NCBI GenBank assembly: GCA_965204745.1
Contig: OZ242010.1
Coordinates: 3,424,001-3,488,000 of the forward strand
From: Candidatus Latescibacterota bacterium
GTDB lineage: Bacteria; Latescibacterota; UBA2968
DNA length: 64,000 bases
Direction of reading: 5' to 3'
Of this stretch, positions 11,160 through 16,273 are shown piece after piece. The notes under the pieces are model-generated. The model saw nothing but the letters and a program-made list of their open reading frames with translations. It had not been told where the DNA came from and ran no database searches. Position numbers and translations under genes: made by a program. How positions within the stretch are numbered: the first letter of the stretch is position 1; every line of letters begins with the position of its first letter.

Positions 11160-12008
11160 ATGACCTCCACAGGAGAGCGCGTTTTGAACCGGACGGGATG
11201 TTTGAAACTTGGCTTGATGATCGGCTCGATTGCCCTGTGGGGATGCAAGGTGCCGCCGAAAGGCACTGTGGTGGCACAGGTGGGGGATAGTTACCTGACC
11301 AAAGAGGCATTAGACCGTCGGATTCCCGCCCCGTTTGCCGGCAAATTGTCGGTTGCGGAAAAACGCAGGTTGGTCGAAAATTGGGTCGAAGAAGAGTTGC
11401 TCTATCGCGAGGCATTGCGGCAAAAGCTCGATAGAGATCCCGAATTGTCGGATCGCATAGATCGTGCGGTGCGGCAATTGTTGGCAGGCGAGTTGATGGC
11501 GCGCCAACACGAGCGGGATACCGACGTCTTACAGGACGAAATTCTCGCCTATTACGAAGCGCATCGGGCGGATTTTGAGCGCGAGAAGCCCGAACTGAGG
11601 GTGCGGCACATCGTCTTGAAAGACGAACAGGCAATGAATCAGGCGTGGGAGCGATTGCAAAAAGGCGCGTTTTTTGGGCAATTGGCCGGCGAAATTTCAA
11701 TTGATCGGTCGGCTTCAAAGGGCGGGGATTTGGGATATTTTACCGAGGATATGGTCAGCCCGGATTTTTGGGCCGCGTGTCGAGACGTCAAACCGGGGCA
11801 TCGGGTGCGCGTTTCGACCGCATTGGGCTACCACATCATCGAGGTGCTAGATCGGCGCGAAGCGGGTTCCATCCGCGAGTTGACCGAGGTGCGCGACGAG
11901 ATTCAACTGCGCGTTCTGACCGAGCGCAGACGCGAGCAACGGGCGAAATTGCTGACCGATCTCAAGGATCGGATGGAATGGTCAATGGATTTGGAGAAGA
12001 TCGAGTAG
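11160..12008 (+). CDS. Parvulin-type peptidyl-prolyl isomerase lipoprotein (PrsA/PpiC-like)
   Basis: Lipobox LWGC, VRHIV, GGDLGYF and GYHII motifs; start uncertain. Confidence 0.85.
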   Translation: MTSTGERVLNRTGCLKLGLMIGSIALWGCKVPPKGTVVAQVGDSYLTKEALDRRIPAPFAGKLSVAEKRRLVENWVEEELLYREALRQKLDRDPELSDRIDRAVRQLLAGELMARQHERDTDVLQDEILAYYEAHRADFEREKPELRVRHIVLKDEQAMNQAWERLQKGAFFGQLAGEISIDRSASKGGDLGYFTEDMVSPDFWAACRDVKPGHRVRVSTALGYHIIEVLDRREAGSIRELTEVRDEIQLRVLTERRREQRAKLLTDLKDRMEWSMDLEKIE

Positions 12009-12086
12009 TGAACCGACCACTAACTGCTGATTGCTGACCGCTTGGCGGCGGGACTGACAACTGGCTACTGACAACTGGAGCTTTTC

Positions 12087-13322
12087 ATGAAAATCACATT
12101 TCTGCTCATCGGCATCATCGCACTCGCGGGCACAGCGCGGGCAGAGCCTGTGTTGTTGGACAAAATCGTGGCTGTGGTGGATGACGAGATCGTGTTGCAA
12201 TCGGATGTGGAGAACAAATTGCGAATGGCGTTGATCGGTCAGGGGATCGACGTGCGTACCATGCCACAGGCCGAACTCGAAGACATGTTCAACAAGGTGT
12301 TAGAGAACGAAATTCAGCGCAAATTACTGCTGGCCAAGGCGCGGGAAGACAGCATTGAGGTGGATGAGGATCGCGTGGAAGAAATGGTGCGGGCGCAGAT
12401 TCGCCAGTTCAAGGAGGAGTTCGGCGCGACGGCGTTTGCCGAAGAGCTAAAAAAACAGGGGTTGACCGAGCGGCAGGTGCGGGACGAGTTCAGGGAGCAA
12501 TTTCGCGATCAGTACTTGGAACGCAGCATGACCGAGATGCTCGCGCAACAGGTGAGCGTGTCGCCTCGGGACGTGAAGGCGTTTCAAGAGAAATACCGGC
12601 GCGGCGAATCCGACGTCGTGTCCCTAAGTCATATTTTTGTCGAACCCACCGCATCTCTTGAACAGCGAGACAAAGTTCGACCGCAGGCAGAGGCGGTGTT
12701 GGAACGCATTCGGGCAGGTGAGGATTTCGCCGCGCTGGCAAAGGAATTTTCACAAGATCCAGGTAGCGCGTCCCAAGGTGGGGATTTGGGCTTTTTTGGC
12801 CGGGGTACCATGGTGACGGCGTTTGAGGAGGTGGCATTTGGTCTCAAAGTGGGCGAGGTGAGCGACCTCGTGCTATCGAAGTTTGGCTTTCACATTATCC
12901 GCGTGGATGAGATCGCGGGCGATCAGGTGCGGGCGCGCCACATCTTGTTTTTGTTGCCGGCAGACGAAGATGCGGCGCAACGCAGGGCCATGGCCTTGTA
13001 CCAACAGATTCAAGACGGGGCGGATTTTGCCGAACTCGCACGCGCAGAGTCCGATTTTGAACAGACCGCGTCTCGCGGCGGATTGTTGGGCAGTTTGCCC
13101 AAGGCCAATCTGCCCCCCGAATACGCAGATGTGGTGCGCGCGCTCAAACCGGGCGGGGTGAGTTTGCCGGTGAAAATGGAAGGCGGGTGGAACCTGTTTC
13201 GCATCAATGACGATGTCAGCGCGTTGGAAGAGATCGCCAAGGAAGAGCGTTTGCAGGTGTTGTTCCGCGAAAAGTTGGCGGAGACGCGGAAGAAGTTGTA
13301 CGTGGATGTGCGCTTGGAATAG
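12087..13322 (+). CDS. surA: SurA-like periplasmic chaperone/PPIase
   Basis: Signal peptide, DKIVAVVDDEIVLQSD N-domain, two parvulin domains. Confidence 0.82.
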   Translation: MKITFLLIGIIALAGTARAEPVLLDKIVAVVDDEIVLQSDVENKLRMALIGQGIDVRTMPQAELEDMFNKVLENEIQRKLLLAKAREDSIEVDEDRVEEMVRAQIRQFKEEFGATAFAEELKKQGLTERQVRDEFREQFRDQYLERSMTEMLAQQVSVSPRDVKAFQEKYRRGESDVVSLSHIFVEPTASLEQRDKVRPQAEAVLERIRAGEDFAALAKEFSQDPGSASQGGDLGFFGRGTMVTAFEEVAFGLKVGEVSDLVLSKFGFHIIRVDEIAGDQVRARHILFLLPADEDAAQRRAMALYQQIQDGADFAELARAESDFEQTASRGGLLGSLPKANLPPEYADVVRALKPGGVSLPVKMEGGWNLFRINDDVSALEEIAKEERLQVLFREKLAETRKKLYVDVRLE

Positions 13323-13429
13323 CCCCTACTCCAATCTTTCAATGCGTTATTGCACGCCATAGATAGATCGAAGATGTATCGATTCACTTTCCGTCAATCG
13401 GGTTAGAATGCCATACATAGGGAGGGCGA

Positions 13430-13813
13430 ATGGGGGAAAGCACCCGCGAAATTTTAGAGTCCAAAGAGTCTATTTGGGCGCGTGTATTTTTTTATAACAT
13501 TTTTATCGGAATTGCTATCTATATCAGTGTTCGGGAGGCCTGGCTTTATCCATTGGCAGGCATACAAGGGATGGGTGACTTGGCGGGGTTCGTGGCTTTG
13601 TTGGTGTTCATTTACACGACTTGGAAGGAGACAGCTATGTTGTTTTACGATGCGTGGGCGAAAAGGGAGCGTCAACAAGGGCGCCAACAAGGGCGCCAAG
13701 AAGAGCGTCAAGAATTGCGTCAAGGCATTGCCCAAGTGTTTGCAGATGACAAAGACGCCATGGAAAAGCTCGATAAATTTTTCAATGGCATCACGCCAAC
13801 AGACCAGAAATGA
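13430..13813 (+). CDS. Small 2-TM protein with RQxG-repeat C-terminal tail; putative internal start at 13637
   Basis: GGAGG RBS, two hydrophobic segments, in-frame AAGGAG-6nt-ATG at 13637. Confidence 0.75.
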   Translation: MGESTREILESKESIWARVFFYNIFIGIAIYISVREAWLYPLAGIQGMGDLAGFVALLVFIYTTWKETAMLFYDAWAKRERQQGRQQGRQEERQELRQGIAQVFADDKDAMEKLDKFFNGITPTDQK

Positions 13814-13915
13814 GCGGTAAGGCGCGGTCTGCTGATACCTGATAGGGGTGTAATCGGGCGCGTGGTTTAGCGCGACAGCGTTTTAGGACATATTTGTTTT
13901 GGAAGGTGGTAATTT

Positions 13916-14389
13916 GTGGTAAAACGAGAGGATCTAATATCCAAGATAAAATCAGAAAAAATTAAAGAGGCTGTTCAGGCATGGCGTCTCTGGGTTGTCA
14001 ATTCTTTTGCTGTCATTGCTTTGGTGCTCGGATGTTGTAAATGTGGGTGGAGCCCTTTTAATCTGTTGCCCTATTTCCCCTATTTACAACCTTACCAACA
14101 GCTTTTTAACGAATGGCTTGTTCGTTATGCGTCAAGCCAAGGGTGGAGTGATTGTGTCGGTTTTGTGGGGTTTGGGATATTTACTTTTATCACCACAGGA
14201 GAAATAGTCATGTACGTTTATGACTGGATGTGTAATCGGCGCGAGTATAAGGCTGAAAAATTGCGCCAAGAAGGACGCCAAGAAGAGCGTCAAGAATTGC
14301 GTCAAGGCATTGCCCAAGTGTTTGCAGACAACAAAGACGCCATGGAGAAGCTCGATCAATTTTTTAATGGGCATAACGGTCAGAAATGA
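13916..14389 (+). CDS. Second membrane protein with the same tail; putative internal start at 14210
   Basis: GTG start after GGAAGGTGG; dissimilar hydrophobic N-terminus; in-frame AGGAG-8nt-ATG at 14210. Confidence 0.72.
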   Translation: MVKREDLISKIKSEKIKEAVQAWRLWVVNSFAVIALVLGCCKCGWSPFNLLPYFPYLQPYQQLFNEWLVRYASSQGWSDCVGFVGFGIFTFITTGEIVMYVYDWMCNRREYKAEKLRQEGRQEERQELRQGIAQVFADNKDAMEKLDQFFNGHNGQK

Positions 14390-14443
14390 GCGGTAAGGCG
14401 TGATCTGTTGATGCCTGATAGGTTTCGTAACCGGACGATAGCC

Positions 14444-14617
14444 ATGTACGTTTATGACTGGATGTGTAATCGGCGCGAGTATAAGGCTGAAAAATTGCGC
14501 CAAGAAGAGCGTCAAGAATTGCGTCAAGGCATTGCCCAAGTGTTTGCAGACGACAAAGACGCCATGGAAAAACTCGATAAATTTTTCAATGGCATCACGC
14601 CAACAGACCAGAAATGA
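14444..14617 (+). CDS. Stand-alone tail cassette 1 (57 aa)
   Basis: Starts at the same Met as the internal start of 13916-14389 (MYVYDWMCNRREYK). Confidence 0.65.
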   Translation: MYVYDWMCNRREYKAEKLRQEERQELRQGIAQVFADDKDAMEKLDKFFNGITPTDQK

Positions 14618-14671
14618 GCGGTAAGGCGCGGTCTGCTGATACCTGATAGGTTTCGTAATCGGACGATAGCC

Positions 14672-14881
14672 ATGTACGTTTATGACTGGATGTGTAATCG
14701 GCGCGAGTATAAGGCTGAAAAATTGCGCCAAGAAGGGCGTCAAGAAGGACATCAACAAGGGCGTCAAGAAGAGCGTCAAGAATTGCGTCAAGGCATTGCC
14801 CAAGTGTTTGCAGATGACAAAGACGCCATGGAAAAGCTCGATAAATTTTTCAATGGCATCACGCCAACAGACCAGAAATGA
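14672..14881 (+). CDS. Stand-alone tail cassette 2 (69 aa)
   Basis: Near-identical tandem copy with extra RQEG units. Confidence 0.65.
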   Translation: MYVYDWMCNRREYKAEKLRQEGRQEGHQQGRQEERQELRQGIAQVFADDKDAMEKLDKFFNGITPTDQK

Positions 14882-14938
14882 GCGGTAAGGCGCGGCGGTC
14901 TGCTGATACCTGATAGGTTTCGTAACCGGACGATAGCC

Positions 14939-15142
14939 ATGTACGTTTATGACTGGATGTGTAATCGGCGCGAGTATAAGGCTGAAAAATTGCGCCAAGA
15001 AGGGCGTCAAGAAGGACATCAACAAGGGCGTCAAGAAGAGCGTCAAGAATTGCGTCAAGGCATTGCCCAAGTGTTTGCAGATGACAAAGACGCCATGGAA
15101 AAGCTCGATCAATTTTTCAATGGGCATAACGGTCAGAAATAG
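14939..15142 (+). CDS. Stand-alone tail cassette 3 (67 aa)
   Basis: Near-identical tandem copy ending in HNGQK. Confidence 0.65.
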   Translation: MYVYDWMCNRREYKAEKLRQEGRQEGHQQGRQEERQELRQGIAQVFADDKDAMEKLDQFFNGHNGQK

Positions 15143-15181
15143 CCCGAGCGCGTGATCGCGCGATTGGATGCGAGGTTTGAA

Positions 15182-15454
15182 GTGAGATTGGATGTCTATT
15201 TGAATACGTGTTGTTTGGTGCGGCGGCGGTCAGAAGGCAAGCGGGCGTGCGACAATGGGATCGTGACCGTGGATGGGCAACAGGCCAAGGCGAGTCGCGT
15301 TTTGCACGTTGGGCAACGGGTGTGCATTGCGTTTTCCGACCGCCTGTTGGAATTTGAAGTGACCGCGTTGCCACGGGGCAATGTGTCGCGGAAGCAGGCG
15401 CCGAATTTTTATCGCATCGTGCGAGACGAAGCGCGGCCCCCCGAGTTTTTTTAG
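15182..15454 (+). CDS. hslR: S4-domain RNA-binding protein (Hsp15/HslR-like)
   Basis: MRLDVYL...LVRRRSEGKRACDNG...KASR pattern; GTG start after GAGG. Confidence 0.8.
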   Translation: MRLDVYLNTCCLVRRRSEGKRACDNGIVTVDGQQAKASRVLHVGQRVCIAFSDRLLEFEVTALPRGNVSRKQAPNFYRIVRDEARPPEFF

Positions 15455-15511
15455 TTCGCAACATCCAAAACAGAAAGGCACAGGCCGGCAGAGGCTGGCC
15501 GTTTTTCATTT

Positions 15512-16273
15512 ATGGCAAATTCCGAGACCACAGCGACGCCTTATACCCGACTGGCGAGCATCTACGATTACGCGATGCGGCATGTGGATTACGTGCATTG
15601 GGCGCGCTATGTGTTGTCGTTGCTCGCACGGCACGATGTCGTGCCCGGCCGGGTATTGGATTTGGCTTGCGGCACGGGCAGTTTGGCGATGGAACTCCAT
15701 CGCCGAGGGGTCGATGTTTTAGGCGCGGATGGGTGCAAAGAGATGATGGGCGTGGCTGTGGAGAAGGCGCGTAAGGCGCGGTATCCCATTCGGTTTTTTC
15801 ACCGCAATTTGCTCGAGTTGGGCGATCTGCCGGCTTGCGATGTGGCGTTGTGTTTGTACGATAGCATCAACTATTTGACGTCGCCTGACTTGGTGCAGCG
15901 GGCACTTGAAGAAGTGCATCGCGTCGTCACCAGCGACGGTGTTTTCGTGGTCGATATTTGCACGGAGAGCAACTCGAGGCAGTACTTCAGCAATATGCAG
16001 TCCACAGATCTCGGGGAGGGATTTTCGTACCTGCGGCACAGTTATTACGAGGCGGCAGAGGAGATGCAGTACAACAGATTTGAGATTCATTTTGAAGATA
16101 CAGATGAAAGGGTGACGGAGTTGCACCGACAGCGCATTTATTCTTTGGCGAAGATCGAGGAAATCGTCGCGGCGTCGCCTTTTGAGATGGCGGGGGCTTA
16201 CGGGGGATATGGGTACGCGCCGCCGACCGAGTTGTCGGACCGGGTGCATTTTGTGTTGAAAAACGAGCTATGA
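15512..16273 (+). CDS. Class I SAM-dependent methyltransferase
   Basis: VLDLACGTG motif I; CLYDSINY. Confidence 0.9.
   Translation: MANSETTATPYTRLASIYDYAMRHVDYVHWARYVLSLLARHDVVPGRVLDLACGTGSLAMELHRRGVDVLGADGCKEMMGVAVEKARKARYPIRFFHRNLLELGDLPACDVALCLYDSINYLTSPDLVQRALEEVHRVVTSDGVFVVDICTESNSRQYFSNMQSTDLGEGFSYLRHSYYEAAEEMQYNRFEIHFEDTDERVTELHRQRIYSLAKIEEIVAASPFEMAGAYGGYGYAPPTELSDRVHFVLKNEL

Follow-up and report, generated by a model that had tools for sequence, protein, structure and literature searches.

The locus described here, positions 13430-15142 of a 64,000-nt window on contig OZ242010.1 (assembly GCA_965204745.1, a Candidatus Latescibacterota bacterium), holds five open reading frames (ORFs) on one strand, two of which (gene 1, gene 2) encode a membrane part followed by a charged tail and three of which (o1-o3) encode the tail only. 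Our finding that a Shine-Dalgarno (SD) sequence and a start codon are held at the boundary between membrane part and tail, in close as well as in distant relatives, may best be explained by a lineage-restricted family of nested genes in Latescibacterota, in which the boundary start most likely makes the tail also as a separate soluble protein and the long form would be a membrane effector restrained by its own tail. To this reading as a whole we give a probability of roughly 0.4, while production of the predicted short form from the internal start is, taken by itself, likely. Unless they are given for the genome that carries the window (G000), coordinates are those of the window, i.e. the whole stretch of DNA that was analysed, and the features of the locus are as follows.

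13200-15200, no strand: low-GC patch with the whole array (~1.8 kb; GC 0.44-0.49 vs 0.54-0.60 in the flanks)
13420-13426, plus strand: SD-like GGGAGGG ahead of the gene 1 start (anti-SD duplex -11.3 kcal/mol)
13430-13813, plus strand: gene 1, long form of 127 aa, with hydrophobic segments at residues 18-34 and 45-61, then the tail
13625-13630, plus strand: gene 1 internal SD AAGGAG, 6 nt 5' of the ATG at 13637 (duplex -12.2 kcal/mol; kept in orthologue L050)
13637-13813, plus strand: nested short form of gene 1, 58 aa, predicted from the sequence as internal-start product
13667-13724, plus strand: 12-nt (four-residue) repeat tract in the gene 1 tail (Tandem Repeats Finder: period 12, 4.8 copies)
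13903-13909, plus strand: SD-like AAGGTGG ahead of the gene 2 GTG start (duplex -12.2 kcal/mol; SD and GTG also in genome G018)
13916-14389, plus strand: gene 2, long form of 157 aa with GTG start; hydrophobic segment 1, 38-aa aromatic loop, segment 2, tail
14197-14201, plus strand: gene 2 internal SD AGGAG, 8 nt 5' of the ATG at 14210 (duplex -7.4 kcal/mol; rare Gly codon GGA)
14210-14389, plus strand: nested short form of gene 2, 59 aa, predicted; an identical 59-aa protein (P0016) is recorded in a protein collection
14444-14617, plus strand: orphan tail cassette o1, 57 aa, zero extra repeats; alternative ATG at 14411 after SD-like AAGGCGTGATC (14395-14405)
14672-14881, plus strand: orphan tail cassette o2, 69 aa, three extra repeats; weak SD
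14939-15142, plus strand: orphan tail cassette o3, 67 aa, three extra repeats, gene-2-type end; weak SD

Both internal SDs, like the five ORFs, stand exactly where a first-pass annotation of the window, made from its letters alone, had placed them. G000 has a canonical 16S end (GGATCACCTCCTT), upstream of its first ATGs GGAG is most frequent at -10, and an SD-like tetramer precedes 38% of 3,900 first ATGs as opposed to 7.4% of 27,627 internal ones, the background at ordinary internal ATGs (n=2,209) being 5.7% for anti-SD duplexes of -9 kcal/mol or below and 3.3% for -10 or below. Conservation of the internal SD and ATG in homologues, which had been set beforehand as one of the points on which the nested reading could be refuted, was found in 11/11 close contexts and 16/17 distant loci. 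In the close family, GGAG lies 10-14 nt before the boundary start in every one of the 11 distinct long-form DNA contexts, and where the boundary Met is replaced (L053) the codon is GTG, still a start codon; a twelfth long form (G000 3321040), outside the search pattern, reads GGAGGcgatcATG, with GGAGG. The conserved GGAG is encoded in seven residue contexts (WKE, TGE, LGD, WRE, LEA, W/CGE, LGD), and Gly is GGA in 5/5 G[ED] contexts, a codon that accounts for 9-10% of Gly codons. By synonymous resampling, with genome or family codon usage alike, such a site has a probability of 0.09-0.28 per context; the product of these values (~5e-6) would hold only under independent lineages, which these are not. 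Distant two-segment relatives from other genera behave similarly, since 16 of 17 loci have a duplex of -9.3 kcal/mol or below before the Met following the second segment (14/17 at -10 or below, the strongest at -20.1). Comparable values precede the tail Met of Rpn-like nuclease genes of the same phylum (-9.5 to -12.2 in 5/5 loci of other genera; -10.8 in the five examined in G000).

As for the long forms themselves, gene 1 and gene 2 each have two hydrophobic segments ahead of the charged tail, and because the loop between the segments holds 0-1 Lys/Arg as compared with 11 in the tail, the positive-inside rule predicts inner-membrane proteins with both ends in the cytoplasm (N-in/C-in). While the two ORFs do share a C-terminal module, as the first-pass annotation had it, their N-termini are not dissimilar: aligned alone by BLASTP, the N-domains match at E=3e-5 with 26% identity over 57 aa spanning the loop and the second hydrophobic segment, and to judge from this alignment they are remote homologues. 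A search for longer relatives returned membrane N-domains in all 7 matches and nothing else; other N-domain types on this tail, which the annotation had suggested looking for, were found neither there nor among 35 representatives out of 1.84 billion, and neither Pfam nor NCBIfam matches the N-domains to the nuclease part of Rpn proteins (TIGR01784 / Transposase_31). The shared module consists of an aromatic head (M[LY][FV]YD.W), four-residue repeats (RQEG)n and a conserved end, ELRQGIAQVFADDKDAMEKLDKFFNG.

This layout resembles that of RpnL/RpnS, a gene-within-gene toxin-antitoxin system that Zhong et al. (2023, PMC10400941) describe from E. coli and elsewhere. There, Rpn genes have an internal start for the C-terminal tail, the repeats begin 8-20 residues after the internal Met, small RpnSs homologues found downstream of an Rpn gene derive from their own upstream gene, and repeat number sets which short form blocks which long form. 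Like RpnL/RpnS, the present family has an SD and ATG where the C-terminal tail begins; repeats of 12 nt (four residues) in varying number, beginning 12 (gene 1) and 19 (gene 2) residues after that Met; tail-only homologues downstream (o1-o3; 3321408-3321698; L043/L095; L096); and a multicopy, patchy distribution with tails fused or swapped. Unlike them, its N-domain consists of two hydrophobic membrane segments rather than a PD-(D/E)XK nuclease, and the window locus lies outside a defence island. Hence the idea of an Rpn-type gene-in-gene with a membrane domain in place of the nuclease survives for the anatomy, charged repeat tail included, and for the conserved start, not for homology of the tail to Rpn.

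By analogy with RpnL/RpnS, the tails may be envisaged to pair helix to helix via the repeat region with its Gly at every fourth residue, and a free tail might cap the tail of the membrane form, limiting how far long forms associate with one another. On this view the membrane form would act as a toxin-like effector that damages the membrane, possibly in abortive infection, and would carry its own inhibitor in the nested tail; tails would also be duplicated downstream as tail-only cassettes and homogenised or exchanged by recombination, so that repeat number and tail ends are reshuffled. That long and nested forms act as a toxin and antitoxin pair we propose only tentatively, and it is from the Rpn comparison that we infer membrane damage and a role in defence. 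More speculative is the notion that in Latescibacterota, and possibly outside the phylum as well (distant relatives P0049-P0061), the Rpn-type arrangement is coupled to a two-segment membrane-damaging effector instead of a nuclease. Such nested genes would together make up a superfamily of membrane toxins and antitoxins, in which the tail cassettes are diversified through duplication, gene conversion and swapping. Should the tail indeed be produced from within the long gene and hold the membrane form in check, 'antitoxins within toxins' would be no longer peculiar to Rpn nucleases and would amount to a transferable regulatory design. From sequence alone it could be recognised by a strong SD and ATG where two domains meet, with a hypervariable helix behind them that has Gly at every fourth residue. 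Hidden nested genes could then be searched for by this rule, small membrane effectors would gain a new class, and proteins of 57-157 aa are directly testable in E. coli.

Part of our data weighs against such a nested pair of effector and inhibitor. To begin with, homologues share ancestry, so the per-context probabilities above cannot simply be multiplied, and the internal SD of gene 2 is moderate only (-7.4 kcal/mol). Weaker still is the SD before the ATGs of o1-o3 (ccGGAcGAtagccATG), with a duplex of -4.1 kcal/mol vs -12.2 and -7.4 at the internal starts of gene 1 and gene 2; the 17 nt upstream of these orphans have diverged from those of gene 2 (GGAC in place of GGAG), their coding part being still identical, and an alternative ATG behind a strong SD-like site (14411, -12.0 kcal/mol) is present in o1 alone. 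The three orphans of the window, which the first-pass annotation took for separately expressed units, could be silent, and with expression signals this weak we do not follow it on that point. Nor are their intact ORFs a sign of selection, because gene conversion keeps the copies identical. Fragments consisting of the N-domain only (P0038-P0040, P0043) also exist, i.e. loss is not one-sided. Measured against PMC10400941, the RQEG unit lacks the one hydrophobic residue that Rpn units generally have, and the ~30 residues after the repeats do not suffice for a three-helix bundle like that of RpnAS. In addition, searches with Pfam, hhalign, BLASTP and the PDB detect no homology between the tail and either Rpn tails or DUF4351, and PADLOC and PHROGs return weak matches over the repeat stretch, none above cut-off. 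Finally, the neighbours of the window locus are housekeeping genes (SurA-like isomerases, S4-domain, methyltransferase, FtsE/FtsX-like) with no defence island, and most other loci (four such loci) have unremarkable neighbours.

The weak orphan SDs and the housekeeping surroundings would suit a scenario, possible though in our opinion not probable, in which the genes form an ordinary lineage-specific membrane family whose tail dimerises to serve as scaffold or anchor, unequal crossing-over, deletion and insertion sequence (IS) elements have left the tail-only ORFs behind as by-products, and the internal SD is unused or a pause site. Consistent with this, dead copies can stay intact through gene conversion, and two seemingly stand-alone short genes are halves of a long gene: at both loci an IS607-like element (a MerR-HTH/resolvase gene plus a TnpB-like gene) has inserted into Gly-Gly-Gly-Gly codons, three codons before the Met, and splits the gene into a membrane half (3119110-3119553; 2876798-2877064) and a tail half (3120944; 2874799). 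Also in keeping with it is a distant relative, L082 (G027:C1:3535470-3535745, minus strand), whose whole tail is doubled head to tail in one ORF without a stop. What such a family does not readily explain is why SD and start codon are held at one exact position despite changing residues and by way of rare codons, in close and distant relatives alike, why the Met replacement in L053 is GTG and why orphans outside the window keep an SD-like site at 6/7 loci (3321408, L043, L096, 1011695 and the two IS-split copies; L044 is the exception). Separately, the two IS-split loci (G000:C1:3119110-3121159 and 2874799-2877064) have common flanks.

Recombination among the tails is a matter on which the five window copies are informative. 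Their tail cores (~120 nt) are 100% identical, and since the N-domains share just 26% identity, the tails are, on this comparison, homogenised by recombination or gene conversion. The three downstream ORFs indeed comprise the module alone and start at gene 2's internal Met, their N-terminus (MYVYDWMCNRREYKAEKL) being the same 18 residues, and o1 and o2 are chimeric in that their head resembles gene 2 and their end (ITPTDQK) gene 1. These chimeras had escaped the first-pass annotation, as had the common frame of gene 2 to o3 and the further copies elsewhere in the genome. Tandem Repeats Finder reports 12-nt repeats within each tail and the cassettes as 228/267-nt units; throughout the family, the repeat region measures 6+4k residues with k = 0, 1, 2, 3, 5 or 9 (6, 10, 14, 18, 26, 42) in 21/21 short forms. 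One N-domain carries tails that give 121, 123 or 127 aa, near-identical N-domains differ by one or two units, P0067 and P0079 have swapped tail ends on near-identical N-domains, and in run X10 one 12-nt unit is absent at 14267. Contigs from other samples break within the repeats, and their uncovered parts are uninformative on cassette number. Tail-only copies have arisen by tandem duplication (window, 3321408, L043/L095, L096), by the IS607-like insertions described above and perhaps also by deletion: contigs from X1 and X5 join 13347 to 13614, whereby the membrane part of gene 1 is gone and SD plus ATG are retained, a weak observation with 30 letters on the shorter side of a joint that may derive from another strain or a repeat.

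From this, the orphan cassettes could be seen as mainly silent donors, whose recombination with long genes switches repeat number or tail end whatever the role of the protein. Although we regard it as improbable, the idea agrees well with the chimeric o1 and o2, with cores that are identical yet carry 0, 1, 2, 3 and 3 extra repeats, with tails swapped on constant N-domains and with orphans that differ in repeat number from the adjacent long gene (window, 3321028 pair, L096); it even has an Rpn precedent, since PMC10400941 reports an N-domain that became fused to a small gene lying downstream. However, no recombinase is encoded at the locus, deletion-based switching is one-way and orphans at other loci keep their expression signals. 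Moreover, silent donors are compatible with nested tail inhibitors and do not exclude them.

Could the family instead be a true, divergent Rpn member, its tail homologous to RpnS/DUF4351 and fused to a new N-domain? This seems very unlikely to us. The hints in its favour are matches over the repeat stretch, namely to TIGR01784 (positions 222-263, E=0.026), PRK09956 (E=0.085) and PADLOC PDLC01084, which picks up the family tail (E=7e-4) as well as the genome's own Rpn-like tail (E=9e-5), together with a GLEQ unit in the G016 relatives and 18 Rpn-like ORFs with (GIEQ)n tails in G000. But all these matches are below cut-off (14.3 bits vs 52.1 in the case of TIGR01784) and confined to low-complexity repeats. 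The comparison of the tail with Rpn C-termini and DUF4351 that the first-pass annotation called for came out empty: Pfam has no tail match at E<=10, PF14261 included; hhalign against this genome's Rpn-like tails gives a probability of 1%; BLASTP gives no alignment, the part after the repeats included; and a PDB profile search finds unrelated chains at best (E 0.19). With neither Rpn tails nor DUF4351 detectably homologous to this tail, the family is, on sequence grounds, Rpn-like in architecture and not an Rpn member. A literature search found no membrane version of Rpn, the term 'transmembrane' occurring 0 times in PMC10400941 and 'membrane' 0 times in PMC10400984, while the supplements of the former (Dataset S1), which lay outside the search, may list other domain fusions.

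The 18 Rpn-like ORFs of G000 measure 315-411 aa and combine an EFQT-type N-domain with (GIEQ)n tails of ~3 to ~20 units; examples on G000:C1 are 2181467-2182480 and two sets of three in tandem (3229497-3232785; 4306758-4309974). An SD-like site (-10.8 kcal/mol) precedes the Met of their FMDAIMRESS motif, and a truncated copy of such a tail lies at 3228483-3228938. As there is no Pfam match and TIGR01784 stays below threshold (over cut-off in 0/29), the label 'Rpn-like' denotes a sequence pattern only. Given tails of such varied length and the truncated copy, the same style of tail variation evidently acts on the nuclease-like genes of this genome.

Among other known systems, SpoIISA of Bacillus subtilis is a membrane toxin whose cytoplasmic domain is bound by the small antitoxin SpoIISB, and the logic proposed here, in which a small soluble protein binds the cytoplasmic part of a membrane effector and holds it in check, would be similar; SpoIISA and SpoIISB are separate genes, though, without nested start or four-residue repeats, and no sequence likeness to our family was found (no Pfam match). 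The lambda holin/antiholin pair S105/S107 starts two codons apart and both products retain membrane segments. As in lambda, two products (here predicted) would come from one small membrane-protein gene with one antagonising the other, except that the short product here has no hydrophobic segment and there is no lysis cassette. In FliH/YscL and in the deca-GX3 motif of Yae1/Lto1, Gly at every fourth residue of a charged helix mediates helix-helix pairing; matches to FliH (E=0.005) and, for distant relatives, Yae1_N (E=8e-4 to 0.03) reflect repeat composition only and imply no homology. Unlike orphan C-terminal arrays of CdiA/Rhs, the long genes are short (127-157 aa) and there is no large delivery protein, each cassette holding one ORF of 57-69 aa.

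Hardly credible is a lysis module of the holin/antiholin kind in a prophage remnant, as is one long protein translated through the TGA stops (14387, 14615, 14879) that are the sole separators of gene 2, o1, o2 and o3 in their common frame. Despite small long forms with two hydrophobic segments and a charged C-terminus and despite a weak holin PHROG match (E=0.23), no phage genes lie nearby, no relative was found in viral contigs, the short form, unlike an antiholin, has no hydrophobic segment, the 3321028 pair is out of frame, RNA structure in the spacers is not above shuffled (z -0.2 to -0.8) and duplication of one in-frame unit accounts for the shared frame. TGA read-through was rejected as a principal explanation.

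With respect to the spread of the family, a word-based search returned 21 relatives of the short and 7 of the long kind, all of them lacking Pfam domains. All 21 near-length tail-only matches start at the same Met, and three short members (P0071, P0073, P0080) fall in clusters of long forms; tail-only genes with this start thus recur at other loci and in other genomes, which supports the gene-in-gene interpretation of the first-pass annotation. A profile search of 1.84 billion representatives gave the 35 relatives mentioned above, and the named records of relatives are Candidatus Latescibacterota genomes. Queried with a single protein, 6/20 other genomes of the genus match and 0/20 outside it, whereas a profile query matches 24/168 genomes of the phylum (G000 included) in 4/49 genera. 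The distant matches are small two-segment proteins with a Met directly after the second segment, Gly repeats (EGRQ, EEGR, GLEQ, EGFG) and unrelated ends. JGI metagenome contigs yielded no relative in two scans. The source bacterium is sponge-associated, and runs containing the stretch are mostly labelled sponge or marine metagenomes.

Gene 1 has relatives in P0023, P0025, P0027 and P0029, gene 2 has orthologues in P0022 and L042, and the site in G018 that is syntenic to the window has one gene-2-type gene only. In place of gene 1, this G018 site (L056:3340-3650, syntenic to window ~13330-13900) carries a perfect 7-nt tandem repeat, GGGAGAC, in ~45 copies. G000 itself (5.48 Mb, one contig) has further copies, namely a long gene plus truncated copy at 3321040-3321698, a partial copy at 1011695-1012033 and the short genes at 3120944 and 2874799. 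The first of these, a paralogue pair, lies ~80 nt downstream of a type III restriction Res gene and has an Rpn-like ORF 6 kb away, and in G016 an Rpn-like gene sits between two long genes in a neighbourhood of transposases. The region around the pair (G000:C1:3317928-3326466) also contains two DDE transposase genes and a ClpP-like protease gene, between the type III Res and DNA methylase genes.

Within the window, the array is flanked by two SurA-like isomerase genes (11160-13322) and an S4-domain gene (15152-15454). Sigma-70-like sites in 13000-15600 number 0 vs 2.8 expected in shuffles, a scan that is uninformative for this phylum. A minus-strand ORF of 331 aa (14132-15127) and +1-frame ORFs inside the cassettes were considered and set aside as by-products of repeats that happen to be stop-free. 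The spacer between gene 1 and gene 2 (13796-13925) folds at -46.9 kcal/mol (z -4.4 vs shuffled) and pairs gene 2's SD; this lead was dropped because the corresponding region in G018 is different.

Two other places in G000 deserve mention. At G000:C1:1011575-1012233 (minus strand), just upstream of a recR-like gene, a cassette retains eight codons of the second hydrophobic segment plus the SD, and ~40 nt of the start region of the recR-like gene are repeated on either side of it, as if it had been inserted with duplication. At G000:C1:644021-644731 (minus strand), two distant paralogues with frames of 143 and 147 aa lie in tandem; their (EGFG)n repeats differ by one unit, and a strong SD (-12.6 kcal/mol) precedes the Met that follows the second hydrophobic segment.

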